Assembly (NCBI GenBank): GCA_964651805.1
Contig: CAZYXX010000002.1
Coordinates: 281,516-345,515, forward strand
Direction: 5' to 3'
DNA from: an uncultured Hyphomicrobium sp.
Lineage (GTDB): Bacteria; Pseudomonadota; Alphaproteobacteria; Rhizobiales; Hyphomicrobiaceae
DNA length: 64,000 nucleotides
This document shows positions 2,728 to 25,809 of the stretch, in pieces (positions within the stretch are counted from its first letter, which is position 1; each line of letters begins with the position of its first letter). A program made the translations under genes and the position numbers. The notes beneath the pieces are model-generated. The model was not told the origin of the DNA and made no database searches. It saw only the letters and a program-made list of their open reading frames with translations.

Positions 2728-2748
2728 GGCCGCGAGGGGGCGACCCAT

Positions 2749-4013: not shown

Positions 4014-4099
4014 CGCTGCATTTGCAACCTTGGTCAATGCCAGGGCCCACCAGCAAAAAATGATTCCGCTGCTCAAACTGGGTAAGAAATAAGAAATAA

Positions 4100-4230: not shown

Positions 4231-4233
4231 GGT

Positions 4234-5169: not shown

Positions 5170-5176
5170 ACGTTAA

Positions 5177-5202
5177 TGCCTGGCGCCACTAGGCGCCAGG
5201 CA
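5177..5202 (+). terminator. Strong hairpin after flagellin stop (no U-tract)
   Basis: TGCCTGGCGCC-ACTA-GGCGCCAGGCA, 11-bp perfect stem. Confidence 0.5.
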
Positions 5203-5396
5203 CCACTTCCCCTAATCCCAAGTCCCGACGACTACAGCGACGTGCCACATCGCTGAGGCTCACGCTGCCGTGTGAGCGTCTGGTCGCGCCCATCGCCGCT
5301 CCCACGGGCGCGACCAGTCCTCGCCCCACCCCTCGTGTCACCCCGGCACAAGGTTGCCTCACTAGCGTCCCTAGACGACATGTCGGGACCGAGGCG

Positions 5397-10100: not shown

Positions 10101-11671
10101 CAGCAGTAGCGGCAACGTCTGCGCCGGAAATCGTGCCGGCTCCCGTGCGTAATGACTCCAACAAAGCCCGGCAGGGGCAATCGCTTGCGCATGGCGCAAA
10201 GGATGCGACGAGCGCGAAAGGCACGAAGGCAATCGGCGCGGAAAAGAGTGGAAATGGCGCTGATCGCGCCGAGAAGGCTCAGAAGTCGGATTGCTCGGGC
10301 GCGACGGCCTGTGCGTTTGAAGACGAAGAGGGCACGAGCTTCGACGACGCAATATCAATGATGGATAACGCGGCCGATAAGCAACTTGAACAGAAAGCGG
10401 CGAACGCGTTGCCGCCCGTTGTGGCGCCGGGCGTCACGTTGTCAAAATTTGACGGCGCTCCTCCCGGTGAAGCAGATGCAAATCCCCCAGCGGACGGCAC
10501 AGGGCATGGGCCATTGCGTGCCCGGGCGGATTGGCTTGGCATCGGCATCGCGTCGGAAACCGCAGGAGAAGGCGAGAATGTGGTCGCAGGTGCCAACGTA
10601 CCAAGCGACGATCTATCTGCGACCGTATTCGATCGAGCTCGCGGTTTGAAGCTTGATGAGTTGGCAGGCACTGGCGAGCGCGGTCAGAATGTCGAGCTTA
10701 CAGAAGCGACGAGGGAACCTCGGGCGCGCGTGAATGTCGTTTCCCAAGAAGCGCACTGGAACTTCTCGTCTTCACCTCAACGCATCAGCTCGCGCATGGC
10801 TGAAACATTGGCCGTCGCCGGACCCGCTCTGGCTCAGGCGCGCCTACACGCACAGGCGGCCGCAACTGGTGATGTCAATCCGATAGTTGGCAAAGACGCG
10901 GATCTTGCGCCGAGTGCGACAGGGACGCCCAACATCCAGGCGGCAGCCCGAGCAGGCACGGCGGCCGGCGAGAGCGGTGGGCAAACGGATTCGGGCACCA
11001 ATCGCCAAGCTGGCGGAAGTGCTGCGACCGATCTTGTTCAGCAATTGCGCCGATCAGCGACCGTGAAGTCAGAAGGCACGACCGCAATCTCCCAGGCCGG
11101 GTTCGCAACGGACGCTGTGAAATCGCCCGCACAACAAGTCGCCGATGCGATCGTCAATTCCGCGCCGCCTCCCGGAACGGACGCGACGGGCGCCGCCGCG
11201 TCGGCGCCGAACAACGTTCTGCGCCGCCTCGATATCAAGCTCGATCCGGTCAATCTGGGTGAGGTCCAGGTCAAGCTATCGCTCAATGCAAATGCATTGA
11301 CTATCAGCATTTCGGCCGCCAATGCCGAGACGGCGAAGATGCTAAGTCAGGATCGGCAGCACATCGATGCCGGCATGCGCCGCGCCGGGTACGATCTCGT
11401 CGATTACACAGTTGCGGTCGCCACCAACGACGCCACCGCCGCATCGATAACAGCAGCCTCGCCAACGGGCGATACGCGGCCCTCCACGGGTCAGAACACC
11501 GGTGGCTCGTCCGCGTCACAGCAATCGCAGCTGCCGAACGGCTCCGGTGGCTCAAATGAGCGCGGCGCGGGTCGCAATGATTTCGGACAACAGCCGAGGC
11601 CGCATGCCGCCGAGCGCGTACTACGTGACGCATCTTCTGCGGCGGCCGTCCAGGGTGGGATCTATGTCTAG
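10097..11671 (+). CDS. fliK: Hook-length control protein FliK (rhizobial MotD)
   Basis: Low-complexity A/G/S/P-rich body; C-terminal LRRLDIKLDPVNLGEVQVKLSL...LSQDRQHIDAGMRRAGY. Confidence 0.88.
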   Translation: MTAVAATSAPEIVPAPVRNDSNKARQGQSLAHGAKDATSAKGTKAIGAEKSGNGADRAEKAQKSDCSGATACAFEDEEGTSFDDAISMMDNAADKQLEQKAANALPPVVAPGVTLSKFDGAPPGEADANPPADGTGHGPLRARADWLGIGIASETAGEGENVVAGANVPSDDLSATVFDRARGLKLDELAGTGERGQNVELTEATREPRARVNVVSQEAHWNFSSSPQRISSRMAETLAVAGPALAQARLHAQAAATGDVNPIVGKDADLAPSATGTPNIQAAARAGTAAGESGGQTDSGTNRQAGGSAATDLVQQLRRSATVKSEGTTAISQAGFATDAVKSPAQQVADAIVNSAPPPGTDATGAAASAPNNVLRRLDIKLDPVNLGEVQVKLSLNANALTISISAANAETAKMLSQDRQHIDAGMRRAGYDLVDYTVAVATNDATAASITAASPTGDTRPSTGQNTGGSSASQQSQLPNGSGGSNERGAGRNDFGQQPRPHAAERVLRDASSAAAVQGGIYV

Positions 11672-11695
11672 GGCGTCGGCCACATCGGAGGATGT

Positions 11696-12040
11696 ATGAG
11701 CTCGACCGGACTCAACGGGCCATTCAAGCTCGACTTTAGCACGATCGAAGACGAAGTGGTGGATGGTTCACCCGGCGCATTCGCGCTGGGATTCATCGAT
11801 CACATGAACCGATTTTGCCTCACATTTGTCGGCAGCGCCGGTTCCGACCTTAAACAGAAGCTGAAGCAGCACATCGGAACCGCGTCGCATTTCAAGTTCA
11901 AGCACTTCATCTCGCAGCGCGCCGCTTTCGAAAAGGAGTGCGAGATGTTTCACACATTCATGCCGAACGGGAATTTCCTGCATCCGGGGCGTCCGGCAAC
12001 GGAGAACTGGAAATGTCCTACGTGCGAGGGGCTACGCTGA
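11696..12040 (+). CDS. Small hypothetical protein, degenerate GIY-YIG-like with putative Cys/His metal site
   Basis: GGAGG RBS; GAF-x-FVG-x-DLKQKLKQH pattern; C-terminal C..H..HP..WKCPTC. Confidence 0.6.
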   Translation: MSSTGLNGPFKLDFSTIEDEVVDGSPGAFALGFIDHMNRFCLTFVGSAGSDLKQKLKQHIGTASHFKFKHFISQRAAFEKECEMFHTFMPNGNFLHPGRPATENWKCPTCEGLR

Positions 12041-12230
12041 GTTCGCGTAGCAGAGGCATGAGATCGCAAACGGCGCGATGATAACCTGAATGCCAATACA
12101 TGCTTTCCGCGGCCGAATGGTCGAGGTGCTTCTGACTTTCGAGAACGTCTGCGCCGGTGTGCGTCAGCCATGCCTCCATCGCCTGCATACGCGAGGCAAG
12201 CTGCTCGACGATTTCTGACTTGTCCGACAT
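12018..12230 (-). CDS. Small hypothetical protein (70 aa)
   Basis: GAGGG RBS about 9 nt before ATG 12230; protein-like QKHLD...YWHSGY; 3' end overlaps the convergent 11696 gene by 23 nt. Confidence 0.6.
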   Translation of the reverse strand: MSDKSEIVEQLASRMQAMEAWLTHTGADVLESQKHLDHSAAESMYWHSGYHRAVCDLMPLLRELSVAPRT

Positions 12231-12354
12231 TGCGCCCATCCCTCGGCCGCGCCGTGTTTTGGCTCAGCCCTGCGCCGCATCCTAGGAGAGAATGGTGCGT
12301 TTATCGCCAAACGCATCCGCGCAATTTTATCTATTTAGAACTTTGGCGAAGGGG

Positions 12355-12780
12355 CTAACCTCGCGTCGAGAGCTTCGCTGCAGCGGCATCCAGTAACCGA
12401 TTGGCAATTGTCATGCGTTCCGTTGCCAGTGCCCTCCAGGCCTCCGGAACCCGGTCGGGGTGGTTTCTCAAGGCGAACGCCCGGCGCAATACTGTGATAT
12501 CCGCCGCCGTTAAGTTTCGATTAAGTCCGAGTTCAGCGGCGATGCTGTCGGCGTCGCATGGTGGTTGCTCGGCTGCTTCGGCATCGCGGTAAGGTCCGGG
12601 TCGTTCGGCTGCGCTCTCTCCGACGCGATTGAAACCGATCGGGCTGTCCGGCAGCGCCAGGATGAAGGCCTTGCTGTTGGGCGTGGTGGAATCTCGTGCG
12701 GGAGCGTCAGTGTCGTTCGCCTCAGCGAGTTCTTCAATCATACCGTCGAATACCGTCACGGACGGTCTGCGAATGCGCAT
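12355..12780 (-). CDS. Protein with C-terminal J-domain-like helix hairpin
   Basis: ELGL...DITVLRRAFALRNHPDRV...TERMTIANRLLD contains the HPD motif; start may be as far upstream as 12843. Confidence 0.7.
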   Translation of the reverse strand: MRIRRPSVTVFDGMIEELAEANDTDAPARDSTTPNSKAFILALPDSPIGFNRVGESAAERPGPYRDAEAAEQPPCDADSIAAELGLNRNLTAADITVLRRAFALRNHPDRVPEAWRALATERMTIANRLLDAAAAKLSTRG

Positions 12781-12878
12781 GTTTGCTTCCGGTCTAAGCG
12801 GATTTCTGCCCGAAGCGGGTATAGTGGTGCGCAATCCTTGCAAGATGCTGGCGTCGGGGAGTTACGGCGCTGCGCGTT

Positions 12879-13283
12879 TCAGCGCAAAATGCTTTTTTGC
12901 AGACGCACGGCCGCGCGGAAGTAGTCCAGGCCGACGTCGTCACCATCGACGTATTGCTCAATGTCGGCGAAGCTTTCGAGGAAGGTGATCCCGAGACGTT
13001 GGCGCCCGACCCATTTGACCAACGCCGGAACGGTCGTACCGTCGAGCAGAACCAGAATCAGCGGTTCGTCGATGCGTGGGACGTTGCCGTCGACGATCGA
13101 CAGCTTTGCGCCGGTGCTTGAAAGGTCGAGCAGGTCGCAGATGAGTTTTCCGGACCGGGTGACGACGCCGACATGCTGCGCGAGCTGATGGCGATGTGTG
13201 CGCCGACGGTCGCCGTCGCTCTCCGCGTGACCGCCTGCTCCGCCGAGTACCGGGTTGTAGGGCTCAATCGCGTTGCGCTTCAT
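12879..13283 (-). CDS. PilZ-domain protein (putative c-di-GMP receptor)
   Basis: RRRTHR (RxxxR) and DLSSTGA (DxSxxG) motifs; ends KWVGRQRLGITF. Confidence 0.85.
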   Translation of the reverse strand: MKRNAIEPYNPVLGGAGGHAESDGDRRRTHRHQLAQHVGVVTRSGKLICDLLDLSSTGAKLSIVDGNVPRIDEPLILVLLDGTTVPALVKWVGRQRLGITFLESFADIEQYVDGDDVGLDYFRAAVRLQKSILR

Positions 13284-13645
13284 GACGCGGACAGTTCAAT
13301 TCAAAACCTTAGTCGGACTCCGTAACCGCAATATCTAGATACCAAATTCGATCTGGAGATTGCGAAATGCAGCCGGCCAAATTCCTTGCCGAATTGACCG
13401 GGTCGATGGACTATCGCAGCGTAACCTCAATTTTCCCTGAATGGAGACGCGTCCCGGGTTGTGATTCGCGCAGCTTTTCAAGGATAAACTGAGAACGCGC
13501 CAAGTTACATATACATCCGTGCAAGCGTGCAATTACTGATGTTTTTTTGGTACGTCGCAGAATAAACGGAAAAACAAGCTGTTAACAATTGCTTTGAATC
13601 ACTTATTCCTGTGGATTGAATTGTGGACAATTTGCGGGGACGGGA

Positions 13646-14476
13646 ATGTTTATCGTTTTGGACGATCGCGCGTCGATCGCCCGCGGGTATGTTGACTGCT
13701 TCGATCGCGAAGGGGTGGCGGCGATCGCGGTCGGCTCGCAGGAGCTCGAGGCTTGGTTCGATGCGATCGGGGATTCGGAGTCCGGGTCTATCGAGGGCAT
13801 TCTTCTTGGGCTGATCGAGGGTCGGGACCTCATTCCGGGGCGCCTGCGGTGTCGATGTCGTGCACCGATCATTGGCATTCTCGACGGCCGCGCCCTATCT
13901 GAAACCTTGCAGCTATTCTCGTCAGGCGTCGACGACGTCGTCGCAAAGCCTTTTCATGTCCGCGAAATACTGGCCCGCACGGGTGCGATCCGCCGCCGCG
14001 CCAGCCAGGCCGACGATAGCGTGGACGTGGGCGGTATCAGGGTCTTCTTCGACGGCCAGGATCCTCTGGTCGACGGCAAGCCTCTGCCTCTGCCGCGCCG
14101 GGAGCGGCGTATCCTCGAATACCTCGTGCTCAGCCGGAACTTGCGCGTGACGAAGACGCAAATATTCAATCGCGTCTATGGCGTCTTCAACGAGGGGATT
14201 CACGAGAACGTTATCGAAAGTCACATCAGCCGCTTGCGCAAACGGCTGAAGCAGCGGCTCGGGCATGACCCGATCGAGTCGCAGCGGTACCTCGGCTATA
14301 GGCTCGTCGGAGGAGAGGCGCGCGCAGAAGATCGTGGCGCCGATGTGGCGACGAACAGTTCCGCGCAAGCCGAGACTGGTTCACTCGTCTCCAATTGCAT
14401 TTCGGACGAGGAGAATTCCGATGGGTCTCTACGGCGTAATGACTACGAGCGTATCCGGCATGTCTGCGCAGGCTGA
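13646..14476 (+). CDS. rem: OmpR-family flagellar master regulator, Rem/FtcR/LafR type
   Basis: MFIVLDDR...EGILLG atypical receiver lacking the phospho-Asp; GVDDVVAKPFHVREILAR; wHTH ENVIESHISRLRKRL; immediately before flgE. Confidence 0.88.
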   Translation: MFIVLDDRASIARGYVDCFDREGVAAIAVGSQELEAWFDAIGDSESGSIEGILLGLIEGRDLIPGRLRCRCRAPIIGILDGRALSETLQLFSSGVDDVVAKPFHVREILARTGAIRRRASQADDSVDVGGIRVFFDGQDPLVDGKPLPLPRRERRILEYLVLSRNLRVTKTQIFNRVYGVFNEGIHENVIESHISRLRKRLKQRLGHDPIESQRYLGYRLVGGEARAEDRGADVATNSSAQAETGSLVSNCISDEENSDGSLRRNDYERIRHVCAG

Positions 14477-15683
14477 TCGCCTGGGAACCGTGGCTGACAA
14501 CATCGCAAACATCAATACCACTGGTTACAAGAAGGCCTCGACCGAGTTTTCGACACTCGTGCCTGAAGCGCGTCTGGTGCAGTACACGCCCGGTTCGGTC
14601 CAGACCACCATTCGAAAGGGAATTTCGGAGCAGGGTGAGCTGGCTTTCACCCGTTCGACGACTGACCTTGCCATCAATGGCAACGGTTTCTTCATGGTTC
14701 AGAACGCGAACGGTACGCCGTATCTGACGCGCGCGGGCGGCTTCGTTGCCAACAGCGAGGGCGAACTTGTAAACTCGGCTGGCTTCAAGCTGCTCGGCTA
14801 CGACCTTCTCAGCGGCAACCTTTCCTCGATCGTGAACAGCGCCGCCGGACTTGAGGTGGTCAGCACCGCGAACCTCGGTCTGCGGGCCGTCCCCTCGACG
14901 ACGGCGTCGCTGCAGGTCAACTTCCCGTCCAATGCCGACATCGTGGCATCGGGCGATTTGCCGGGTGCGAACCCAGCAAGCCCAGAATTTTCCGGCAAGA
15001 CGTCGATTGTCACTTACGACAACCTCGGCAACGAGGTGCTACTCGATATCTATTCAGCGAAGACGGCCGCCAACACTTGGCAGGTCAGTGTGTTCGATCA
15101 TGCGACCGCGGGGTCGAACGGAGGGTTCCCTTATTCTTCCGGGCCAATCGCAACGCCTACGACTTTCACATTCGACGGCTCGACTGGTCAATTCGCAACG
15201 TCGAGTCCCACCAGCCTCACGGTACCCATCCCGAATGGATCGCCGCTGACAATTAGCTACGGCGGCTCGACGCAGCTTTCAGCCGGTTATGTCGTGCAAG
15301 ACGCCGCAGTTAACGGCAACGCGCCAACGCGCGTCGACCGGCTTGAAGTCAGCAAGGAAGGAATCGTGACGGCCGTTTATGAGAACGGCACGCGCATTGA
15401 TGCCTATAAGATCCCGCTCGCGAACGTTGCAAGTCCGAACAATCTGACGACGCTATCTGGCAACGTCTTCTCACCCAACAATGAGTCGGGTGACCTCCAG
15501 ATCGGCATCGCGGGTACGGCGGCGCTGGGCTCGATCGTGTCGGGTGCCTTGGAAAAGCCGACGGTCGATCTGGCGTCCGAACTCACCACGATGGTCGAGG
15601 CTCAGCGCAGCTTCACGGCCAACTCGAAGGTTTTCCAGACGGGCGCGGATTTGATGGACGTTCTCGTCAACCTGAAGCGCTAG
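14421..15683 (+). CDS. flgE: Flagellar hook protein
   Basis: Start ATG 14421 after GAGGAG; ADNIANINTTGYK, TDLAINGNGFF, LTRAG; C-terminal VDLASELTTMVEAQRSFTANSK. Confidence 0.97.
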   Translation: MGLYGVMTTSVSGMSAQADRLGTVADNIANINTTGYKKASTEFSTLVPEARLVQYTPGSVQTTIRKGISEQGELAFTRSTTDLAINGNGFFMVQNANGTPYLTRAGGFVANSEGELVNSAGFKLLGYDLLSGNLSSIVNSAAGLEVVSTANLGLRAVPSTTASLQVNFPSNADIVASGDLPGANPASPEFSGKTSIVTYDNLGNEVLLDIYSAKTAANTWQVSVFDHATAGSNGGFPYSSGPIATPTTFTFDGSTGQFATSSPTSLTVPIPNGSPLTISYGGSTQLSAGYVVQDAAVNGNAPTRVDRLEVSKEGIVTAVYENGTRIDAYKIPLANVASPNNLTTLSGNVFSPNNESGDLQIGIAGTAALGSIVSGALEKPTVDLASELTTMVEAQRSFTANSKVFQTGADLMDVLVNLKR

Positions 15684-15693
15684 CGCTTCAGGT
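15670..15693. repeat. Perfect 24-bp palindrome centred on the flgE stop codon
   Basis: ACCTGAAGCGCTAGCGCTTCAGGT equals its own reverse complement. Confidence 0.8.
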
Positions 15694-15711
15694 CACTTGA
15701 GGCAAGGTTAG

Positions 15712-17184
15712 ATGGGCATTGGTGTCGGTCTCGATGTAGCGCGATCAAGTTTGGCGGTGGCGAGCGAGCAAATCTCGATCGTCTCGCGTAACGTCGCGCG
15801 CATCGACGATCCCAATGCCACGCGCAAAGTCGCGCGGGTCGTCACCGGGCCTGGATCACAGGTCCACATCGCTCGGGTAGACCGGGCGTACGACAGCCTG
15901 ATGCTGGAGAAGTACCTCAGCTCCAATTCGAGCGCGACGACGCAAACGACCATACTGAATGCGCTCACGCAGCTTTCGCAGACGATCGGCGACGCTGATA
16001 CTGGGCGGTCTCCGGCCAATCTCATCGCGCAACTCGGTGGCGCGCTTCAGCAGTACGCGACCAATCCCCAGAACGCGGCTGTTGGGGCTTCGGTTGTGTC
16101 ATCGGCCAAGGATCTGGCCTATGCGCTCAACGAAGCGACGCTGGCGGTCAATTCGGTGCGCCAGCAGGCTGACGCCGACATCGCCAATTCGGTCGCCGAC
16201 ATCAACACGCTGCTCAAGCAGTTCGGAGAACTCAACGCGCAGATCGTGCAAGGGTCACGCGGCGGCGGAGACCTGACGGATCTGATGGATGCGCGCGACG
16301 GCGTGCTGAAGCAGCTTTCGGCTGAGCTCGGCATTCGCACCATTTCCCGCACCGACAACGACATCGCGATTTTCACCGATAGTGGCGTCACGTTGTTCGA
16401 CAAGGTGCCGCGAACCGTGACTTTCGGCGCGACGTCGATGCTGCAGGCCGGCGGTACCGGCAATGCCGTCTACGCGGATGGCGTGCCGATTGCGGGTGCG
16501 CAGCATGTCATGGCCGTCGGCTCCGGGCGGCTCGCCGGCCTTGTGGCGGTTCGCGACGAGATCGCGCCGGCCTATCAGAAGCAACTCGACGAGATCGCTC
16601 GCGGGCTGATCGAGGCTTTCGCGGAATATGACCAATCGGCTTCGCCGACTTTGCCTGCGGCGGCCGGTCTGTTCACCTACAACGGCGGTCCGTCCATTCC
16701 GACGACGGGCGTCCTGATCTCGGGTCTCGCCGGGCAGATAAAGGTCAACCCGAACGTGGACCCGTCGGCGGGCGGCAACCCGGTCTTGATTCGCGACGGC
16801 GCTATCTCGGGCAACCCAGCTTACGCATATAACGCCTCGGGTGCCGCCTCATTCACAGATCGCATCCAGGATCTGATCTCACAGATCGATGCGACGCGGT
16901 CCTTCGATGTCTCGGCGCAGGTGGGTGCGAGTGGAAGCCTCAGTTCCGTCTCGAAGGATTCGGTCGCGTGGCTTGAAGAGTTGCGTCAGTCGGCGAAATC
17001 GGAAGCCGACTATCGCAGTACAGTGAGCCAGAGGGCGGGAGCATCGCTTCAGAAGGAGACAGGCATCAGTCTCGATGAAGAGATGACCAACATGCTGAGC
17101 CTGGAGCGTACGTTCCAGGCGTCATCGCGGATCATAAAGACGATCGACGACATGCTGGCGTCGCTCCTGGCGATAACAGGATAG
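15712..17184 (+). CDS. flgK: Hook-associated protein 1
   Basis: ISIVSRNVAR N-terminus; GISLDEEMTNMLSLERTFQASSRII C-terminus. Confidence 0.95.
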   Translation: MGIGVGLDVARSSLAVASEQISIVSRNVARIDDPNATRKVARVVTGPGSQVHIARVDRAYDSLMLEKYLSSNSSATTQTTILNALTQLSQTIGDADTGRSPANLIAQLGGALQQYATNPQNAAVGASVVSSAKDLAYALNEATLAVNSVRQQADADIANSVADINTLLKQFGELNAQIVQGSRGGGDLTDLMDARDGVLKQLSAELGIRTISRTDNDIAIFTDSGVTLFDKVPRTVTFGATSMLQAGGTGNAVYADGVPIAGAQHVMAVGSGRLAGLVAVRDEIAPAYQKQLDEIARGLIEAFAEYDQSASPTLPAAAGLFTYNGGPSIPTTGVLISGLAGQIKVNPNVDPSAGGNPVLIRDGAISGNPAYAYNASGAASFTDRIQDLISQIDATRSFDVSAQVGASGSLSSVSKDSVAWLEELRQSAKSEADYRSTVSQRAGASLQKETGISLDEEMTNMLSLERTFQASSRIIKTIDDMLASLLAITG

Positions 17185-17188
17185 CGCG

Positions 17189-18241
17189 ATGATCTATCCT
17201 TCATTCATATCGACGGTGGCGATCTCCAACGAGACGCGGCTCTCGATCGCGCGCATGCAGGCGCGTCTGGTCGAAGCGCAGACGGAAATGGCGACCGGAC
17301 GGCACGCGGACGTTGGTCTCACGCTCGGCGCGAAGTCGGGCATTACCACGTCGCTCAGGCAAGATCGTGCGCAGCTGCAGGCGATCAAGGATTCAAACAC
17401 GCTTGTTGCTACGCGCCTGACGGCGTCGCAGACCAGTCTGACCAACATATCCGATCTCGCGCAGAACTTCCTCGCGGCCATAGTGCGCGCGCAGTCTACA
17501 TCGCTTACCGACAATACAATCATCGCGGAAGCGCAAGCGACTCTCAAATCCTTCAATGAAGCCCTGAACGCGTCGGTTGACGGCCAATATCTGTTTGCCG
17601 GAATCAATTCCGACGTAAGGCCGGTCGATTCATATTTCGGCGAAATACCGCCCGCCAGCCGGCAGGCGATGGCGGCCGCATTTCAGGCAGCGTTCGGGTT
17701 TGATCAAACCTCGGCAAGCGTGGCGACGATATCGGCATCGGCCATGCAGAACTTTCTGGACAACGATTATGCGGCGATGTTCGCCAACCCGAGCTGGAGC
17801 GCTGACTGGTCGTACGCATCCGACAAGAACGTGCGCAACCGCATTTCGAGACTAGAGCTTGAAGACGTTTCGACGAACGCCAATCAGCAGGCATTTAGAG
17901 ACCTCACCGCCGCACTCGTGATGGTCGCCGACAGCGGCTTCGACAAGATGTCGGAAGTAACGCGCGGTGTGATGCTCGAGCGGGCGTCCAACCTGGTCAT
18001 GAGCGCCATCGGCGCCGTTTCGGGCATTCAATCTACGCTTGGCGTGACGCAAGAGCGCTTGTCAAAGTCATCTGAAACTCTCGGTCTGCAGATTGGCCTG
18101 ATCGATAAGTCGATCACCGACCTGGAGGGTGTCGATCCGAACGAAGTCGCGACGCGACTGTCGACGCTGACTACGCAGATGGAAGCCGCCTATTCAATAA
18201 CACGTAGAATCCACGACTTGAGCATCATCGACTATCTGTAA
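17189..18241 (+). CDS. flgL: Hook-associated protein 3
   Basis: TEMATGRHADVG, GQYLFAGINSD, LEGVDPNEVATRL...AYSITRRI; follows flgK. Confidence 0.92.
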   Translation: MIYPSFISTVAISNETRLSIARMQARLVEAQTEMATGRHADVGLTLGAKSGITTSLRQDRAQLQAIKDSNTLVATRLTASQTSLTNISDLAQNFLAAIVRAQSTSLTDNTIIAEAQATLKSFNEALNASVDGQYLFAGINSDVRPVDSYFGEIPPASRQAMAAAFQAAFGFDQTSASVATISASAMQNFLDNDYAAMFANPSWSADWSYASDKNVRNRISRLELEDVSTNANQQAFRDLTAALVMVADSGFDKMSEVTRGVMLERASNLVMSAIGAVSGIQSTLGVTQERLSKSSETLGLQIGLIDKSITDLEGVDPNEVATRLSTLTTQMEAAYSITRRIHDLSIIDYL

Positions 18242-18288
18242 GTTCCGCTTCCGCAACCAGAAAACAAACAACCAACGCGACCTGACAG

Positions 18289-18636
18289 ATGTACAAATTC
18301 TCATACGAAGAAGTGTTGGACGAGGGAGCGCCGCGCCAAAAGGAAAGCGAGCGCGCAGCGATACAACACTCTATAGAACTTTTGCGACGTGCCGAACTCA
18401 AAGGCCGCGATTCGATCGAGGCTGCGGAAGCGCTGGTTTTTCTCAACCGGCTTTGGAGCTTCTTCATCGAGGAGCTGTGCAAGCCGGACAACGTCCTGCC
18501 ATCGGAGCTCAAGGCCCGCATCATCTCGATCGGGCTTTGGCTCATGCGTGAAGGGGACGCGATCGGAGATAAGCGTTCCAATAATTTCAAAGGCATCATC
18601 GACGTTTCCGAGACTGTTGCGGAAGGGCTCCGATGA
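18289..18636 (+). CDS. flaF: Flagellin regulator FlaF
   Basis: EALVFLNRLWSFFIEELCKPDNVLPSELKARIISIGLW. Confidence 0.92.
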   Translation: MYKFSYEEVLDEGAPRQKESERAAIQHSIELLRRAELKGRDSIEAAEALVFLNRLWSFFIEELCKPDNVLPSELKARIISIGLWLMREGDAIGDKRSNNFKGIIDVSETVAEGLR

Positions 18637-19061
18637 GCGGCAATCTGCGCATTTCCCTGCGGGCGGGCGAGCGCTTGTTCATCAATGGAGCGGTCATAAA
18701 GGCCGACCGGAAGGTCAGCCTCGAGCTTCTGAACGACGTGGTGTTTCTGCTCGAGCAGCATGTCATGAAGCCTGAGGAAACGACGACCCCACTGCGGCAG
18801 TTGTACTTCATGGTTCAGATGATGTTGATGGATCCGTCTCTGCACCTCAAAGCCAAGGAAATGGCCTTCGCTTCGATCGCGGAACAGCTTGCGGCATTTT
18901 CCGATCCGGCTATCCGCCAGGCGCTCGTGGAGATCAAGAAATCACTTGAGGACGACCGGCCGCTGGAAGCGCTAAAGCGCGTGCGAGCGTCGTTCGTTAT
19001 CGAAGAAGCCCTCGTCGCCGCGCCACCGGCCGGCAATTTGAATGCCAAGGAGGTCGCATGA
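18633..19061 (+). CDS. flbT: Flagellin translational regulator FlbT
   Basis: LRISLRAGERLFINGAVI...FLLEQHVM..TTTPLRQLYF. Confidence 0.95.
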   Translation: MSGNLRISLRAGERLFINGAVIKADRKVSLELLNDVVFLLEQHVMKPEETTTPLRQLYFMVQMMLMDPSLHLKAKEMAFASIAEQLAAFSDPAIRQALVEIKKSLEDDRPLEALKRVRASFVIEEALVAAPPAGNLNAKEVA

Positions 19062-19459
19062 CCACGATCAATCCATACTCCGGATCGAGCACGACGACGG
19101 AGAGTTCGTCCGCAACGCGGGCTTCGACGCTCGACTACGATGCATTCTTGAAGCTTCTGCTGGCGCAGATGCAGAACCAGGATCCGCTACAGCCCATGGA
19201 TTCGACGGAATACGTCGCGCAACTCGCGACGTTCTCGAACGTCGAGCAGGGACTCAAAATGAACGAGAAGCTGGACAAACTTCTCTTCCTTTCGAACATT
19301 CAACAGAGCGGTGAGCTTATCGGACGCACGGTGACCTCGGCGGACGGAAAGGTGTCGGGCGTCGTGGAAGCGGTAAGGGTCGAATCCAGTGGGGCTACCG
19401 CGATCCTTGAGGACGGCACCGAGCTCTTTATCGATGAAGGCGTGACGGTCAGCGCATGA
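19058..19459 (+). CDS. flgD: Hook capping protein
   Basis: FLKLLLAQMQNQDPLQPMDSTEYVAQLATFS. Confidence 0.96.
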   Translation: MTTINPYSGSSTTTESSSATRASTLDYDAFLKLLLAQMQNQDPLQPMDSTEYVAQLATFSNVEQGLKMNEKLDKLLFLSNIQQSGELIGRTVTSADGKVSGVVEAVRVESSGATAILEDGTELFIDEGVTVSA

Positions 19460-19728
19460 TGACCGATGGCGACGTCATTGAACTCGTTCAGCGCGCTCTG
19501 TGGGTTACTGTGCTCGTTTGTGGGCCTGTCGTCTTGACTGCGATGATCGTCGGCACGATCATCGCATTTCTGCAGGCGCTCACACAGGTCCAGGAAATGA
19601 CCTTGACCTTCCTGCCGAAGTTGCTGGTGGCCTTCATGGTGCTTGCGCTGTCCGGTCCGTACGTTGGCAACGTTCTTCAGAGCTTCGCCATGGAGACGTA
19701 CGACCGGATCGCAATGTCGCCGCCCTAG
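19456..19728 (+). CDS. fliQ: Export gate FliQ
   Basis: IAFLQALTQVQEMTLTFLPK. Confidence 0.96.
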   Translation: MMTDGDVIELVQRALWVTVLVCGPVVLTAMIVGTIIAFLQALTQVQEMTLTFLPKLLVAFMVLALSGPYVGNVLQSFAMETYDRIAMSPP

Positions 19729-19791
19729 CTGATCCTCGCGCAAGTTTCGTCCGGCAGAATTCTCGGGTCGTTTGCAGCCCGAGGAACGTGA

Positions 19792-21885
19792 ATGTCGGCC
19801 GTAAAATCCGTCAGTAGTGGCGTAACTCCGGTCTTGAGCCGGCAAGATGCCGGTTTGGCCGTCGGCGTCGTCATTATTCTTACGATCCTGTTCCTGCCGC
19901 TGCCGTCGATTCTCATCGACATTGGGCTCGCGCTATCAATCGCGCTGTCGATCCTGATTCTGATGGTGGCTCTGTGGATCAAGCGGCCGCTTGAGTTCAC
20001 GGCGTTTCCAACCATCCTGCTGATTGCAACGCTGCTTCGTCTGGCGCTCAACGTCGCTACAACACGACTGATCCTGTCGCACGGCGCGGAAGGACCCCAT
20101 GCAGCGGGACATGTCATCGCCGGTTTTGCCCAGTTCGTCATGGGCGGCGACTTCGTCATTGGTATTGTCGTCTTCGTGATCCTAATCACGGTCAACTTCG
20201 TGGTGATTACGAAAGGTGCATCGCGCATCGCCGAAGTCGGCGCACGCTTCACCCTTGATTCGATGCCCGGCAAGCAGATGGCAGTTGACGCGGACCTTTC
20301 CGCTGGCGTGATCGACGAAAAGGAGGCGATCCGGCGTCGGCGCGAGCTCGACGAGGAAAGCCAGTTCTTTGGCGCCATGGACGGCGCCTCAAAGTTCGTG
20401 CGTGGCGATGCCATCGCTGGCCTCATCATCACGGCCGTCAATATTTTCGGCGGCATCATCATCGGTATCGCGCGGCACGACCTACCGGTCGATCGTGCGG
20501 TCGAAATCTTCACGAAGCTGTCGGTCGGCGACGGCATCGTCACGCAGATGCCGGCGCTCATCGTGTCCCTTGCCGCAGGTCTGCTCGTTTCAAAGGGTGG
20601 CACCCAGGGTTCGGCCGAGAAGGTCATCTTCGGCCAGATCACGAATTATCCGAGCGCCATGCTGCTTGCCGCTGCCGTCATGGCGGTGCTCGCGGCGGCG
20701 CCCGGTCTGCCTTTCGCACCGTTTGCGATGATTGCCGCCATCCTGGGCTTTCTTGCTTACATTCTGCCGCGCCAGTTCGCGGCAGCTGAGCAGGCCAAGG
20801 AAGAGGTGAAGACGAGCGCCAAGGCGCCAACGGCCGAGGACATCACGCTTCAGCAGATCAAGGATCAGCTGAAGACGAGTGAGATCGAACTGTGCTTCGG
20901 CAAGCAGCTGTCGGGCGTGCTGATGCGTTCCACCGGCGATTTGGCGCAGCGTGTCGCCAAGATGCGCAAAAAGTTCGCCAAGCAGTACGGATTTGTCGTT
21001 CCCGATATCAAACTGACGGAAGATCTGGCGATACCGCCGAAGAGTTACCAGATCCGCGTGCACGGCACGACGGTCGCAAGCTCAGAGCTGCGGCTTGGCG
21101 ATGTCCTTGTGGTGGTCGGCGATGGGCCGAAGCCCGACACGCCGAGCGATGAGACGCGCGAGCCGGCATTCGGCATCAAAGCCGTTTGGGTGCCGGATAT
21201 TTTCACTAATGCGCTGAAGCGAGACGGCTTTGTGCCGGTCGATAACACGTCCGTGCTGCTCACGCACATGGCGGAGGTCATTCGCAACAATCTGGCGCAG
21301 CTTCTGTCCTATAGGGATATGCGCGGGCTCTTGGAGCGTCTGGAGCCGGAATACCGCAAGCTGCTTGAAGAGATCACGCCGTCGCAGATCTCCTATTCGG
21401 GCCTGCAGGGTGTTTTGAAACTCCTGCTCGCCGAGCGCGTCTCGATCCGCAACATTCACCTGATTCTGGAGGCGGTCGCCGAAATCGCGCCGTTCTCGCG
21501 CAAGGCCGAACAGATTACCGAGCATGTGCGCATGCGACTTGCGACGCAAATCTGCGGCGACGTATCAGACGGCGGCACGTTGAAGATCGCGCGTCTCGGC
21601 AATAAGTGGGAAGTCGCCTTCCATCAAGCATTGAAGCGTGATCAGAAGGGCGAGGTCGTCGAGTTCGACATCGATCCGCGCATGATCGAGCAGTTTGGGC
21701 AGGACCTCAGCAGGGTCGTGCAACCATTGATGGATGCCGGTCAGCAATTTGTGCTCATCACGTCGGCCGATACACGACCCTACATTCGAACCGTTACCGA
21801 GCGCTTGTACGCAACGCTTCCCGTTATCTCGCACCACGAGATCAGCAAGGGAATGCCGATACAGACACTCGGATCGCTGTCGTGA
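19792..21885 (+). CDS. flhA: Flagellar export ATPase-docking protein FlhA
   Basis: [34 protein letters not shown]; [16 protein letters not shown]. Confidence 0.98.
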
Positions 21886-22646
21886 ACTCGGCAACGACGC
21901 TCGAAATTGTCACTGCTTTCCTAGTCTTCTGTCGCGTCGGTAGCTGCGTCATGATCCTTCCGGGACTCGGCGGCGGTCGTGTTCCACCGACCGTCCGCCT
22001 TTTTTTGGCGTTCGCGCTGTCTTTGGCGCTGATGCCGGTTGTCGACAGAGCGGACTTTGCGGGCGCGAACGCGCAAACCACCATGCTAGCCGTTTACGTG
22101 GTTCTGGAGGTTATCGTCGGCCTGTTTCTTGGGTTTCTCGTGCGTATTTTCTATTTGGCGCTCGAGTTTATCGCCGTGGCGATGGCCAATTTCGCCGGGT
22201 TCGGCTCCATATTTATGCAGGCTGTCGACGATAACTCATCGACGACGCCGTTTTCGGAATTGATCACGCTTCCGGCATTGGCGCTTTTTTTCATCCTCGA
22301 TCTGCACGTGGCGGTCATCGGGATGTTGAAGTCGTCCTATGATGTTGTGACGGTCGGTCAATGGGCGGGCTCAACGATCGAGCCGAACATTCTTGTCAAC
22401 GCGTTTCAAAGCTCATTCGCTTTGGCGTTACAGATGAGCGCGCCATTGCTGGTCTACTCACTGGCTCTCAATCTCGTGCTGGGTCTGCTCAGCAAGCTTA
22501 CGCCGCAGGTGCCGATCTATTTCGTCTCCATACCGTTTCTAATTGCCGGCGGCCTTTTTATGCTATTCCAGACGGACGGGATCATCCTTTCGAGCTTCAC
22601 GTCCTCCGTGTCGACGTGGATCACAGGACTAGCGACCGATGGCTAG
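21882..22646 (+). CDS. fliR: Export gate FliR
   Basis: Hydrophobic; [30 protein letters not shown]. Confidence 0.93.
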
Positions 22647-23055
22647 CCGGCTTCTCCGTGTCAGGCGGACGCTTAAAGTGTTGGGCAATCTTGAACTCGT
22701 GGAGCGTGTCAGGCTGGCTGAGGCGAACCGTGCGCTTGACGCTTGTGCGGCGGAGCAGCGGGCTCTGCTCGAAAGTCTCGGCAGCGAGACGGCGTTCGAC
22801 GGTCACTTCATTGACATGATCGCGAGCCGCGTCGGCAGGCTTGTCCGGCAGGAGCAGCAACTCAAAATGGTTCGTAGGGATGCGCAGGTCCGGTTGACCC
22901 ACGCGGCGGTTCGAACGCGGGTCGCGGACGGCATTGCGCAGGAGGCGGCACGGGAGGAAGAACGACGACTTGAGCAGACCGAACTACAGGCCATCATCGA
23001 TGGAGCAATCGCCGCGATCGCGCAAGGCCGAGGTAAGTCGAGCGACCTAACGTAA
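22639..23055 (+). CDS. Hypothetical coiled-coil flagellar protein, FliJ-like
   Basis: All-helical charged 138 aa, coupled to fliR at the rhizobial FliJ-like position. Confidence 0.55.
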   Translation: MASRLLRVRRTLKVLGNLELVERVRLAEANRALDACAAEQRALLESLGSETAFDGHFIDMIASRVGRLVRQEQQLKMVRRDAQVRLTHAAVRTRVADGIAQEAAREEERRLEQTELQAIIDGAIAAIAQGRGKSSDLT

Positions 23056-23086
23056 ATGCGATCGCAGCTCGTCCGCTGCGCGCGGA

Positions 23087-23428
23087 GTGGGCATGCAACC
23101 GTTACAACTCGACTCAACCGCTTCGTCGGATGTCTGGCAGACCGCTGTTCGGGATGCGGCACCGTCCGATCGTCCGGCCGGCGCGGATCCGGCGCGGATG
23201 AAACGCGCCGGCGTCGAGTTCGAGGCAATGTTCCTACGTCAGTTTCTGGAGATCGTCATGCCGAAAGATGACTCCGGTGGCGTCTACGGCGGTGGGCTGG
23301 GAGGCAGCATGTGGCGATCGATGCTGGCCGACAACATCGCTAAGGCCGTGGCTCAGGATAGCCCGCTTGGTCTGGCGGAGAAAGTTGCACAGGCTGACGC
23401 CCAGCCGCCTGAAATGGATCGTTCATGA
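23087..23428 (+). CDS. flgJ: Rod-binding protein (FlgJ N-terminal domain only)
   Basis: AGVEFEAMFLRQFLEIVMP...YGGGLGGSMWRSMLADNIA; no muramidase domain. Confidence 0.82.
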   Translation: MGMQPLQLDSTASSDVWQTAVRDAAPSDRPAGADPARMKRAGVEFEAMFLRQFLEIVMPKDDSGGVYGGGLGGSMWRSMLADNIAKAVAQDSPLGLAEKVAQADAQPPEMDRS

Positions 23429-23907
23429 ACCTCGCATCGGCAGACAAACACGCAGCCAATTCGACGGCGGCCGGCTACCTCAAGCCGACGCTTCCGGAGG
23501 TCAAAGCGTCGCCTGCGAATGTGCGACCCCAGGGCGGGGCGTTGCGTCGAACCGGCAAAAATCTGGCGCTCGCGATCATCGGCCGGATCGAGGCGCAGGT
23601 TGGCCTTGAGACGCAGGCGCTGGCTAACGGTACGCCGTTCGATCTGGAAGATTCAAACAACAGGAAGTGCCAGAGTCTTGCGGAACTCAACCAAGCGGTC
23701 AAAGGCCTGCTGTCGACCGATATGGATCAAGAATTTGCTGCGCGGCTTGCTCATTTGCGCACGCAGCTCGCCGAGAATATGGCGATGATAAGCATGCATC
23801 TGGAAGCCGTTCGAGAGGTTTCCGCGATGCTGTCGCAGTCGATCCAGAATGCTGAATCCGATGGGACGTATGATCCCCGTGCATCGATGCAGAAAGGGGT
23901 GAGATGA
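23425..23907 (+). CDS. flgN: FlgN-like export chaperone
   Basis: ETQAL..DLEDSNNRKCQSLAEL...HLEAVREVSAML...AESDGTY; follows flgJ. Confidence 0.7.
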   Translation: MNLASADKHAANSTAAGYLKPTLPEVKASPANVRPQGGALRRTGKNLALAIIGRIEAQVGLETQALANGTPFDLEDSNNRKCQSLAELNQAVKGLLSTDMDQEFAARLAHLRTQLAENMAMISMHLEAVREVSAMLSQSIQNAESDGTYDPRASMQKGVR

Positions 23908-24374
23908 TCCAAGTCATTGTCTGCGCCCTGCTGACGTGTATTGTCACGATAGGGGCTGCATTCGGCATGATGACCTACAATGCCTCCGGCAGTGAACATG
24001 CCGCCGAGGAAAAAAAAGTCACGCTGGTCAGCGCCAAATCGCGCATGATCAGCGTTCCAATAATCTCGGAAAACAAGGTTCAAGGCTACGTCGTCGCGCG
24101 CTTCGAATATGTGGCGGACGCAGACCTGATGAAGGCTTCCAAAGTCCCGCCCGAGAGCGTCCTCGCAGACGAAGCTTTCAAGATTATCTATGGCAGCGCT
24201 GGGCGCGACTTCCGCTTCGCCAAGAAGACGGACGTTGAGGAAGTGACCGCTAGCGTGCGGGAGGGCGTCAATAAGCGGTGGACCGCTCCTGTGATCAAGG
24301 ACGTGATGATCGATAGTTGGAGCTTCTTGAGAAACGAAGAGGTCAAGAGAAACCATGAGCAGCCGAAGCGTTGA
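23904..24374 (+). CDS. Hypothetical single-TM protein, second FliL-like
   Basis: N-terminal TM; ISVPIISENKVQGYVVARF, similar to the conserved rhizobial gene after flgN. Confidence 0.55.
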   Translation: MIQVIVCALLTCIVTIGAAFGMMTYNASGSEHAAEEKKVTLVSAKSRMISVPIISENKVQGYVVARFEYVADADLMKASKVPPESVLADEAFKIIYGSAGRDFRFAKKTDVEEVTASVREGVNKRWTAPVIKDVMIDSWSFLRNEEVKRNHEQPKR

Positions 24375-24939
24375 TTTCCAACTTGATATGCTGCTGGGAA
24401 ACGCGCGGCAGATGACAGAGGCGATGACACCGCGTGCAACAATGTGGGGTGGAGCGCGCGTGCCGAAGCGTCGAACACTGGCGTCGATGGCGATCCTTCT
24501 TGGCATGAGTTTGATGGTCGCGGTGGTGCTCGTTGCGCTCATGAGCGGCATCTGGAACAGCGCACCGACGCAATGGACGCATGCGCTCCTGGCACTCATC
24601 GTCGCGCAGTCGGCGATCATGGTTGGCGTAGGCATCCGCTCATCGATGGCGGCTGAAGCTCGTCAACAGGAACTCATTCGCGCAGCACGCGCTCAGGCGC
24701 GACTCAAGGCGGAAACGGTCATGCCGACGACCCCTCCGCCGCTGCCGGTGCGTGCTCTTGCGGATCGTCTGACGCTTATCGGGCAGGGTGAGATCGGCGG
24801 GCGACCCTATGTGCAGCTCGCGGACGGTTCCTACGAGGTTCAGACACTTCTGGGGCGTCGGCGGTTTGGCTCTCTGGATGCAGCTGAAGAGTTCGTCATC
24901 GGGCGAGCGCAGACGGGTGCTGAGGCGCGCGCGGCCTAG
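24355..24939 (+). CDS. Hypothetical two-TM membrane protein
   Basis: Two hydrophobic segments, Pro-rich linker, small C-terminal domain GEIGGRPYVQLADGSYEVQ..RRFGSLD; start uncertain. Confidence 0.6.
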   Translation: MSSRSVDFQLDMLLGNARQMTEAMTPRATMWGGARVPKRRTLASMAILLGMSLMVAVVLVALMSGIWNSAPTQWTHALLALIVAQSAIMVGVGIRSSMAAEARQQELIRAARAQARLKAETVMPTTPPPLPVRALADRLTLIGQGEIGGRPYVQLADGSYEVQTLLGRRRFGSLDAAEEFVIGRAQTGAEARAA

Positions 24940-25008
24940 GCTGCGCGCTCAGATCACTCCAAGAGAAATCTTATCGGATAGCGCTGAGACTAAGACAGGA
25001 GCTGACCA

Positions 25009-25734
25009 CTAGAGCCGAGCGTTGGCTTTGTTGTCAGCTTCTTCCGTTTTATTTCGATCTGCGATCATCGTCGTCAGCAGCTGCACCATCAACGCGCGCG
25101 CGTCCTCCGCCTTTCGATCGGCAGCTTTCGCCTCGTCGGAAATGCCGGCCGCAGTGTACTCAATACGGCGGGCAGAGTCCTCATTTGCGGCCGTTTCCTG
25201 CAAGACCCGTGTCAGGGCCTGCTGAACCTCCGCCGGCGATTCGCTAGTGGGAGACCTTGCTATGTCCGCGGCGGCGCTTGCCGCAACAGACAAAGCAGAA
25301 GCGGGACCCGCGGCTGCGGCACCAGCTGACCCGATCCACTCGACTTCGGCGAGCCGCCGTTTGGTCAATCCCTCAAGAATCTCGCCGCCGGCTTTGTTGT
25401 ATTTGACGAATATTTCGCGCGCCTTGTCGAGGTCGCCGCTCGCAATGGCCTTGCCGAGTTCGCCCTTTGTCCAGGCGTTGCCGGCGTTGTAGGTCAATGA
25501 CGTCAGTGCGGCGCGAGAGCCGACATCGAGATTCGGTGCTATTCGATCGACAAAGGCGGCGGCATTGGCAATCTCGTTCTGGAAGCGGCGTTCCGCTTCG
25601 GCGCGATCGATCACTTCACCTGGATAACGTGCGCGGGTGCCGTAGCCATTCGTGTGCTGCGCGTAATCCCACTTCGCGCTGGCGGCGAAGCCCTCGAATT
25701 GTTTGATGGCGTCGAGAAATTTTGCGTCGAGCAT
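25009..25734 (-). CDS. GH24 (phage T4-type) lysozyme with Ala-rich linker and helical C-terminal tail
   Basis: IKQFEG...WDYAQHTNGYG; AALTSLTYNAG; YNKAGGEILEGLTKRRLAE. Confidence 0.88.
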   Translation of the reverse strand: MLDAKFLDAIKQFEGFAASAKWDYAQHTNGYGTRARYPGEVIDRAEAERRFQNEIANAAAFVDRIAPNLDVGSRAALTSLTYNAGNAWTKGELGKAIASGDLDKAREIFVKYNKAGGEILEGLTKRRLAEVEWIGSAGAAAAGPASALSVAASAAADIARSPTSESPAEVQQALTRVLQETAANEDSARRIEYTAAGISDEAKAADRKAEDARALMVQLLTTMIADRNKTEEADNKANARL

Positions 25735-25809
25735 GCCGCCATTTGACAGGTGCAACCTTGCGGCGGCCTAGCGTACGGCTTGTTGTTGCGGCAACAGATG
25801 CGTTGCGTC

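Follow-up and report, generated by a model that had tools for sequence, protein, structure and literature searches.

The 64,000 nucleotides of DNA analysed here (the window; contig CAZYXX010000002.1, positions 281,516 to 345,515) come from an uncultured Hyphomicrobium and carry a flagellar gene cluster with, just past its end, a gene for a phage-type lysozyme of glycoside hydrolase family 24 (GH24), which is the subject of this account. The cluster occupies 261..24939 on the forward strand and is of the Rhizobiales type, as judged from NCBIfam and Pfam assignments and from its colinearity with the clusters of Sinorhizobium meliloti and Phyllobacterium zundukense. Its first part holds flgI, flgH, fliL, fliP, a flagellin gene, fliF, a motE-like gene, motB, motC and fliK, and its second part a rem-like regulator gene, flgE, flgK, flgL, flaF, flbT, flgD, fliQ, flhA, fliR, flgJ and a flgN-like gene. 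The last three open reading frames (ORFs), at 23425..24939 on the forward strand, are orf160 (FlgN-like), orf156 and orf194 (with two transmembrane segments); their counterparts take the same position in S. meliloti and Phyllobacterium, where that of orf160 is annotated as FlgN. The lysozyme gene (25009..25734, reverse strand) converges on orf194, which ends at 24939, leaving a gap of 69 nucleotides (nt). Upstream of it, also on the reverse strand, come gcvT-gcvH-gcvP and a CNNM transporter gene, the last of these 75 nt away.

The flgJ gene of the cluster (23087..23428, forward strand) encodes a protein of 113 amino acids in which the rod-binding domain (Pfam PF10135) is the sole domain. It scores below the cut-off of the NCBIfam FlgJ model PRK12790, and the hydrolase domain is absent. 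The rest of the window, some 38 kb, consists of ordinary chromosomal genes that include gcvTHP, the CNNM transporter, sensor kinases, transporters, PabB and an RND pump, and no phage genes were found in the window, nor any gene transfer agent (GTA) or holin genes near the GH24 gene.

The GH24 gene encodes 241 amino acids and a stop codon when read from the ATG at 25734. The longest ORF (25009..25755, reverse strand, 248 amino acids) opens at a TTG at 25755, but the Met encoded at 25734 is the common start of all 95 aligned homologues, which sets the length at 241. Residues 1-136 (25327..25734, reverse strand) form the catalytic domain, as delimited by Pfam and Protein Data Bank alignments, by an AlphaFold2 model searched with Foldseek and by 45 columns that are invariant in the 95 sequences. 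The Pfam Phage_lysozyme profile (PF00959) matches over its full length, positions 1-125, with an E value of 2.1e-19 and 70.5 bits against a cut-off of 22.3, and the PHROG endolysin family phrog_7 matches at E 3e-22. The model has a two-lobed lysozyme fold with pLDDT 75-92 across residues 1-110, and its best structural matches are the GH24 endolysins 6et6, 9kbq and 8app (also 9kbs), at a Foldseek probability of 1.0 and a TM-target of 0.72-0.75; further matches include the muramidase domain of SpmX (6h9d, rank 14) and the R21, P22 and T4 lysozymes. The protein belongs to GH24, the family of T4- and P22-type phage lysozymes, and its catalytic triad is intact. The NCBIfam model for the GTA endolysin BgtA (NF058676) gives 40.7 bits (E 2e-10) against a cut-off of 315, which is below threshold. 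A large protein collection holds about 600 homologues, and the best 120 of these are all 233-270 amino acids long, come from Hyphomicrobium where the source is named, and go by the generic names of lysozyme or glycoside hydrolase family protein.

The active-site hairpin (25636..25695, reverse strand; E14...W22-D23-Y24...T28-N-G-Y-G-T33) was placed from the sequence, the alignment with 6et6 and conservation. Its motif, FEGFAASAKWDYAQHTNGYGT, reads E14-x8-D23-x4-T28 in a stretch that runs from the Phe before E14 to T33, and the three residues match E11, D20 and T26 of T4 lysozyme, with the Glu ending helix 1 and the Asp and Thr on the beta-hairpin. The spacing from D to T is one residue below the canonical one, and HMMER places a one-residue gap relative to 6et6; this short spacing is common to the whole subfamily, its phage member included. 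E14 and D23 are among the 45 invariant columns, and position 28 is T or S in 95 of the 95 sequences. Judged by these residues, the gene codes for an apparently active muramidase.

Behind the catalytic domain, residues 137-241 (105 amino acids; 25012..25326, reverse strand) form a tail, recognised by composition, alignment and the AlphaFold2 model, in which an Ala/Ser/Pro-rich linker is followed by helices. The tail is 29% Ala, the linker is weakly conserved across homologues, and the three helices of the model are of low confidence (pLDDT 46-74). Toward the C terminus the alignment of the 95 sequences reveals a Leu-rich amphipathic motif (25063..25104, reverse strand; in the window DARALMVQLLTTMI) with the family consensus F-x-x-L-x-S-D-x-x-L-L-x-L-L and then a charged end, in which L220 is invariant and D211, L217 and L219 are each conserved in at least 90%. 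Analogous Leu-rich helices lie near the C terminus in every arrangement class and clade of the family, and the motif is a candidate site for the binding of a partner or chaperone.

No Sec, Tat, signal-arrest-release (SAR) or transmembrane export feature was found across the GH24 family. Because the catalytic Glu comes as early as residue 13 or 14 in 89 of the 95 homologues, a signal peptide or a SAR helix would have no room. No transmembrane segment is predicted in the window protein, whose top 19-residue Kyte-Doolittle mean, 1.24, falls within the Ala-rich linker. A SAR-like or transmembrane role for this Ala/Gly/Ser-rich linker was rejected, as its hydrophobicity is under the transmembrane range and it lies C-terminal to the domain. 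The protein has no disordered segment at its N terminus and carries the conserved amphipathic Leu-rich helix at its C terminus.

Most of these features had been read from the letters of the window in the initial annotation, and they hold up under the present analysis: a FlgJ of 113 amino acids with rod binding only, a GH24 gene that is the first past the cluster and convergent with it, a gene boundary at 25734 (now supported by the start shared across the homologues), an E-x8-D-x4-T motif, a tail of roughly 105 residues that is Ala-rich and helical, no signal peptide or SAR helix, and no phage genes nearby.

Linkage to flagellar genes and the place of the cluster transglycosylase

The wider distribution of the gene was surveyed on contigs taken from one genome per species, in a pattern-seeded sample of 76 loci and then 19 more, out of at least 115 relatives. 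Flagellar genes were located on these contigs by mapping onto them the flagellar proteins of the window and of Hyphomicrobium facile. The 95 loci with a homologue are species-level and almost all from Hyphomicrobiaceae, and 87 of them (69 of the 76 and 18 of the 19) have the GH24 gene no more than about 2.2 kb away from a flagellar gene. All chromosomal homologues among the loci surveyed are from Hyphomicrobiaceae or, more broadly, Hyphomicrobiales, and none is from Caulobacterales.

This linkage is kept through at least eight gene orders. In the window the gene converges on orf194 at the flhA-fliR-flgJ end of the cluster, and in 22 species, H. facile included, it converges on a fliJ-like gene, fliI and flgF. 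Other loci show the orders fliK-orf114-GH24, fliK-GH24, fliI-GH24, GH24-rem-flgE and fliG-fliM-GH24, or a GH24 gene convergent on orf114-orf156. Co-directional placements include starts 12-20 nt after fliK and about 100-200 nt after fliI, and in two of the arrangement classes, C and D, the gene ends the motE-motB-motC-fliK operon. The clades of the GH24 tree match the arrangements, which fits vertical inheritance combined with repeated rearrangement of the cluster. The non-flagellar flank differs from clade to clade, with CNNM and gcvP genes in the window and a HAD-CBS gene in the largest clade (class B), so the GH24 gene tracks the flagellar genes and not its other neighbours. No conserved holin-like neighbour was found across the GH24 loci, where flagellar or housekeeping genes adjoin the GH24 gene in every arrangement. 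The initial annotation had pointed to linkage in relatives as a check on a flagellar role, and the linkage is found.

The unlinked loci comprise two prophage copies in Bradyrhizobium, a domain within an ORF of 1476 amino acids, an outlier of 35% identity and contigs with almost no flank, together with two loci (L055 and L210) that have no obvious explanation. The domain within the 1476-residue ORF (L070, approximately 10001-10420) is 54% identical to the phage protein described below and comes from a metagenome-assembled genome of an uncultured proteobacterium, in which flagellar genes are absent within 20 kb. Two contigs (L137 and L194) combine a flagellar cluster of the Hyphomicrobiaceae type and a GH24 gene with the label "Bacteroidota bacterium MAG138", probably a binning error in the public record.

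A gene for a lytic transglycosylase (SLT) domain protein following fliK is a feature of the clusters of Rhizobiaceae, Phyllobacteriaceae and Brucellaceae. In S. meliloti and Phyllobacterium this SLT gene overlaps the 3' end of fliK and precedes rem, and the S. meliloti protein carries a typical Sec signal peptide. The best 120 FlbT homologues are all from Hyphomicrobium, and sister families were for that reason reached through a plasmid and chromid collection and a mixed FlbT alignment, which gave 80 FlbT-centred loci of Hyphomicrobiales. Each scan covers at most 80 loci, and absences from the linkage and FlbT surveys, such as that of H. sulfonivorans, are accordingly not firm. A cluster SLT is present in 31 of the 80 loci, including those of Agrobacterium, Rhizobium, Neorhizobium, Hoeflea, Ochrobactrum, Pseudaminobacter and Consotaella, and none of these 31 has the GH24 gene. 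The loci labelled Hyphomicrobium in this survey are all without an SLT, and no locus with both a GH24 gene and a cluster SLT occurs among those surveyed. In three loci of Aurantimonadaceae (L094, L110 and L125, from Aureimonas, Aurantimonas and Mangrovicella), rem follows fliK almost directly with neither enzyme between them; the flagellar wall enzyme of these bacteria, if any, must be encoded elsewhere.

The window itself contains no detectable SLT. Pfam and NCBIfam scans of every ORF of the flagellar region found none, tblastn with the flagellar SLT of S. meliloti gave nothing significant in the window, and a broad motif expression validated on the S. meliloti protein had zero matches there. 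A narrower expression, ES...G[LM]MQ, would miss the S. meliloti enzyme (TE...GCMQ) and was replaced by tblastn and the broadened form. The same queries found no SLT in 77 Hyphomicrobiaceae loci (about 1.3 Mb), in which both halves of the cluster are covered (for example in the H. facile loci L011 and L072), or in the 19 later contigs. The initial annotation had likewise seen no SLT in the window and had left room for an orthologue in the other half of the cluster, where none was detected in the relatives surveyed.

The placement of the GH24 gene in one clade is informative about what may have taken the place of the SLT. In class D (L030, L031, L033 and L059), the GH24 gene starts 12-20 nt past the fliK stop codon, in the same slot as the SLT. 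In three of these loci (L030, L059 and L031) the start lies 4-6 codons after the stop and in frame with fliK (near positions 10001 and 7557), which suggests translational coupling; in L033 it is not in frame. A FliK-GH24 fusion made by read-through is conceivable but unsupported, and the pattern, in frame in three of the four class D loci, is not significant. Taken together, the distribution of SLT and GH24 genes bears the signature of non-orthologous displacement of one wall-cleaving enzyme by another.

Several other features of the clusters deserve mention. In the window, fliK (10097..11671, forward strand; Pfam Flg_hook) is followed in the post-fliK slot by orf114 (11696..12040, forward strand), which is without a family match and has six database homologues. 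In its AlphaFold2 model (pLDDT 82) the protein looks like the GIY-YIG nuclease domain of UvrC, with a Foldseek probability of 0.99 and a TM-target of 0.61-0.65, and its motifs are G-[AT]-[FY]-A-L, [FY]-V-G, R, E and N, plus a C-terminal CPxC. Many Hyphomicrobiaceae clusters have orf114 at a distance of 0.3-1.3 kb from the GH24 gene, whereas those of S. meliloti and Phyllobacterium lack it; it may have arrived together with the lysozyme gene. The possibility that orf114 is a relative of the endonuclease VII gene preceding the phage GH24 gene was rejected, as the two have no similarity. Between orf114 and the rem-like regulator gene, two genes on the reverse strand (12355-13283) encode a protein of 162 amino acids and a PilZ-domain protein (Pfam E 3e-07), and the latter hints at an input of cyclic di-GMP to the flagellar cluster; in Phyllobacterium a PilZ gene stands at the end of the cluster instead. 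Two independent public assemblies of the same organism (L078 and L079) are both interrupted in or beside flgA, about 300 nt ahead of the first letter of the window, which suggests a repeat or a strain-variable region.

Phage relatives and comparable systems

The best phage match to the window protein is a protein of 230 amino acids from the Bradyrhizobium phage ppBeUSDA76-2, at 45-51% identity. It shares with the flagellar family the W-D-Y...G-Y-G-T hairpin with its spacing shortened by one residue, an Ala/Pro-rich tail of about 90-100 residues and the lack of a signal peptide, and it differs in that the C-terminal Leu-rich motif is missing. The settings also differ: the window gene belongs to a chromosome and to a flagellar neighbourhood free of phage and holin genes, and the phage gene lies beside genes for DNA ejection and tail fibres. 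The phage locus (L080) holds two GH24 genes, at 2986-3678 and 4969-5562. The relative of the flagellar family sits between genes for ejection proteins, endonuclease VII and tail fibres; the other has a much stronger match to the endolysin profile and is followed by three small membrane proteins, with which it likely forms the lysis cassette. A second Bradyrhizobium contig shows the same order of a GH24 gene and then tail-fibre genes, and B. jicamae PAC68 carries a nearly identical prophage (L075 and L071 belong with these phage loci).

By gene position, the phage kin of the flagellar enzyme would be lysins of the tail or ejection module. Tail lysozymes such as T4 gp5 are also among the phage GH24 lysins. 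The canonical endolysins (P22 gp19, T4 e and 6et6) have the same fold as the window protein, but holin-endolysin and SAR-endolysin cassettes are marked by an adjacent holin, pinholin or spanin gene or by a SAR helix, none of which was found for the GH24 family. The initial annotation had seen the gene as a domesticated endolysin that substitutes for SltF. The substitution is supported by the slot and by the mutual exclusion with the SLT; the term endolysin fits less well, because the nearest phage kin lie outside the lysis cassette, and the protein is better read as a relative of a tail- or ejection-module lysin. A neighbour-joining tree places the prophage group inside or beside the flagellar group and does not fix the direction of transfer.

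How the flagellar rod crosses the peptidoglycan, and with which enzymes, is still debated. Lytic transglycosylases encoded within flagellar clusters include SltF of Rhodobacter sphaeroides, PleA of Caulobacter and BB0259 of Borrelia. To our knowledge, the wall enzymes dedicated to the flagellum are GH73 domains (FlgJ) and family-1 lytic transglycosylases (SltF, PleA, BB0259 and the cluster SLT of Rhizobiales). Where FlgJ has a single domain, it acts together with a separately encoded lytic enzyme (PMC8517470, PMC6913195, PMC8781033), and the papers on such FlgJ proteins name lytic transglycosylases alone as partners. Full-text literature searches found nothing relevant that links GH24 or phage lysozymes with the flagellar rod or cluster. 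No description of a flagellar use of GH24 was found in this literature, and the enzyme family appears not to have been implicated in flagella before, in line with the suggestion of the initial annotation that this would be an undescribed solution.

The flagellar SLTs resemble the GH24 family in several ways. Each is a stand-alone wall enzyme encoded with flagellar genes alongside a FlgJ that is rod-binding only, and in one clade of Hyphomicrobiaceae the GH24 gene has the very position of the SLT, after fliK and before rem. SltF has a C-terminal extension, as does the GH24 protein, in which it could mediate partner binding; in Rhodobacter the SltF C terminus modulates the binding of FlgJ (PMC8517470). 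The chemistry is different. The flagellar SLT is a family-1 lytic transglycosylase that leaves 1,6-anhydro ends, whereas GH24 is a hydrolase with an E/D/T triad and an unrelated fold, and the GH24 protein has no SLT domain (PF01464; motifs E-S/T ... G-x-M-Q ... Y-N/H-x-G). Export also differs, since a Sec signal is present in the S. meliloti SLT and in SltF, which is Sec-exported (PMC8781033), and in none of the GH24 family.

The two-domain FlgJ of beta- and gamma-proteobacteria offers another comparison. It is a true hydrolase used for the flagellum, as the GH24 protein would be; like the latter it has no Sec signal, and it is exported by the flagellar type III system, the route proposed below for GH24. 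It is unlike the GH24 protein in that its GH73 glucosaminidase is fused to a rod-binding domain that carries the export signal; the GH24 enzyme is a separate protein, and its N terminus is the lysozyme fold itself. A 2026 study found the hydrolase activity of FlgJ to be helpful and not essential in Salmonella (PMC13584718).

A GH24 domain that became fixed in Alphaproteobacteria is already known from SpmX, whose muramidase domain is followed by a charged, Pro-rich linker and two C-terminal transmembrane helices and whose cleft is attenuated, with D20 replaced by L or R and T26 unconstrained (bioRxiv 10.1101/418723). The GH24 family shares with it a signal-less N-terminal GH24 domain, a disordered linker, a conserved C-terminal part and occurrence in a dimorphic lineage. 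SpmX is restricted to Caulobacterales and Parvularculales and acts in polar localisation and the placement of the stalk. The window protein is not SpmX: its family has an intact triad in place of a degraded one, lacks the two transmembrane helices, and is linked to flagellar genes in a different order, Hyphomicrobiales.

Candidate functions of the flagellar-cluster lysozyme

A GH24 muramidase dedicated to the flagellum has probably displaced the cluster SLT in Hyphomicrobiaceae, a reading that rests on the intact triad, on the linkage to flagellar genes through many rearrangements, on the use of the SLT slot in class D and on the failure to detect a cluster SLT in the Hyphomicrobiaceae loci. 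The enzyme would cut the peptidoglycan of its own cell locally at the nascent flagellum, which would let the rod, or the basal body and stator, be installed where the FlgJ rod cap has no enzyme domain. Its way into the periplasm would be the flagellar type III export apparatus, which the two-domain FlgJ uses in Salmonella. This route is a tentative proposal, and one on which we would lean slightly toward doubt; it is reached by elimination, since Sec, Tat and SAR features and a conserved holin-like neighbour are all missing and the apparatus is the sole export machine that is consistently co-encoded. The flagellar chaperones FlgN, FliS and FliT, as well as partners of the FlgJ type, bind C-terminal amphipathic helices that lie behind flexible linkers. 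By parallel with SltF, the conserved Leu-rich helix behind the disordered linker might dock the GH24 enzyme on FlgJ, on a rod protein or on an export chaperone. The most far-reaching version of this mechanism, in which the signal-less stand-alone lysozyme represents a new class of flagellar type III substrate that its C-terminal helix places on FlgJ or the rod and that is of shared descent with, or descended from, phage tail or ejection lysins, is on the whole unlikely. A lysin of the phage tail or ejection module reaches the periplasm in a comparable way, unfolded and by a narrow conduit.

The 75-nt intergenic region between the CNNM and GH24 genes (25735..25809, reverse strand) contains GCCGCAAGGTTGC. 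Within it a partly palindromic block, GC(C/G)GCAAG(C/G), lies at 25752-25764 on the reverse strand, and in several arrangement classes (L001, L007-L029, L036, L043, L049, L064 and L068) such a block recurs at a distance of 22-150 nt before the start of the GH24 gene; related blocks precede those homologues whose upstream region is not shared with another gene. GCNNCAAGGTTGC, with one mismatch allowed, is found 7 times in the window against 1.5 expected, with one copy upstream of fliF (5345-5357). Contig depth is flat and low in the sequencing runs that hold the window. Contigs from an activated-sludge metatranscriptome cover a homologue at a depth equal to or above that of its neighbours, a weak sign that speaks to transcription and not to co-regulation.

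Several points weigh against a dedicated flagellar muramidase exported in this way. The known substrates of the flagellar type III system have their signal in a disordered N terminus, and here residue 3-4 already opens the lysozyme fold and residue 14 is the catalytic Glu. The C-terminal motif is degenerate in the window protein itself, where the consensus F and first L are A and K. In the window and in class B the gene sits at the edge of the cluster, 40-75 nt downstream of a housekeeping gene with which it is co-directional, a place that does not speak for co-regulation with the flagellar genes; the conserved motif that precedes the GH24 gene did not turn up ahead of fliF in other loci, and there is no CtrA-type TTAA-N7-TTAA box within 160 nt upstream of the GH24 gene in any arrangement. 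For the source genome, the absence of an SLT covers the window, the upstream half of the cluster having been seen in the relatives, and a housekeeping lytic transglycosylase may be encoded elsewhere in the genome. In some bacteria, flagellation is possible without peptidoglycan hydrolysis (PMC13584718).

Other roles for the protein would account for part of the same evidence. The lysozyme fold could have been coopted, as in SpmX, to act as a cytoplasmic or envelope scaffold or localisation module at the flagellated pole and not as a wall cutter, for example by marking the pole for flagellum loss or hyphal outgrowth. The architecture is SpmX-like, 6h9d is among the structural matches, the family is confined to a budding, hyphal lineage, and a cytoplasmic role would remove the problem of export. 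The counterparts of T4 lysozyme R14 and Y18, which are invariant in typical phage lysozymes (bioRxiv 10.1101/418723), are also not conserved here, but these differences are common to the phage member of the subfamily and so give no sign of detoxification. The E/D/(T|S) residues are invariant in 95 sequences, whereas SpmX lost D20 and T26; C-terminal transmembrane helices are absent and the family does not occur in Caulobacterales; and a GH24 gene in the exact slot of the SLT argues for enzymatic replacement. We consider such a scaffold improbable. Marginally less credence goes to a flagellar role away from the rod, either in anchoring the stator (MotB/MotC) or in the release or turnover of the flagellum at the transition from swarmer to hyphal cell. 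Classes C and D, in which the gene ends the motE-motB-motC-fliK operon, would suit such a role, and Helicobacter lytic transglycosylases are needed in motor function rather than in assembly; the linkage supports a flagellar role without naming the step. In other arrangements, however, the gene comes after fliI or ahead of rem-flgE, in the company of export and rod or hook genes, and the SLT that would have been replaced is generally assumed to be a partner of FlgJ.

It is also conceivable that the gene is an incidental neighbour, a prophage or GTA remnant or a general autolysin without flagellar function. The closest kin outside Hyphomicrobiaceae are Bradyrhizobium prophage genes, BgtA gives a weak match, and the window gene is not within the cluster but reads on the other strand, downstream of housekeeping genes. 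This explanation is strongly disfavoured by the linkage data, as the association with flagellar genes persists through all the rearrangements described above while the non-flagellar flank changes. There are also no phage, GTA or holin genes near, the BgtA score is far under its cut-off, and the catalytic domain is under strong purifying selection; we regard a chance neighbour as very improbable indeed.

If a GH24 muramidase has indeed displaced the cluster SLT, it would be a third, independently recruited type of flagellar wall enzyme, fixed in the flagellar gene set of a whole family, and the Hyphomicrobiaceae would provide a clean natural case of non-orthologous gene displacement in a conserved machine. 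Next to SpmX it would also be another phage-type lysozyme to have become fixed in Alphaproteobacteria, here with the catalytic triad kept; with SpmX as precedent, a role that is non-enzymatic, or enzymatic in part, is a real alternative for such a domain. The signal-less nature of the family raises the question of how a potentially lethal lysozyme gets to the wall at the flagellum alone. Should the flagellar export apparatus prove to be the answer, a Sec-exported transglycosylase would have been replaced in situ by a type III-exported hydrolase, and, given descent shared with phage tail or ejection lysins, the family would offer a direct evolutionary bridge between the ways in which phages and flagella penetrate the bacterial cell wall.

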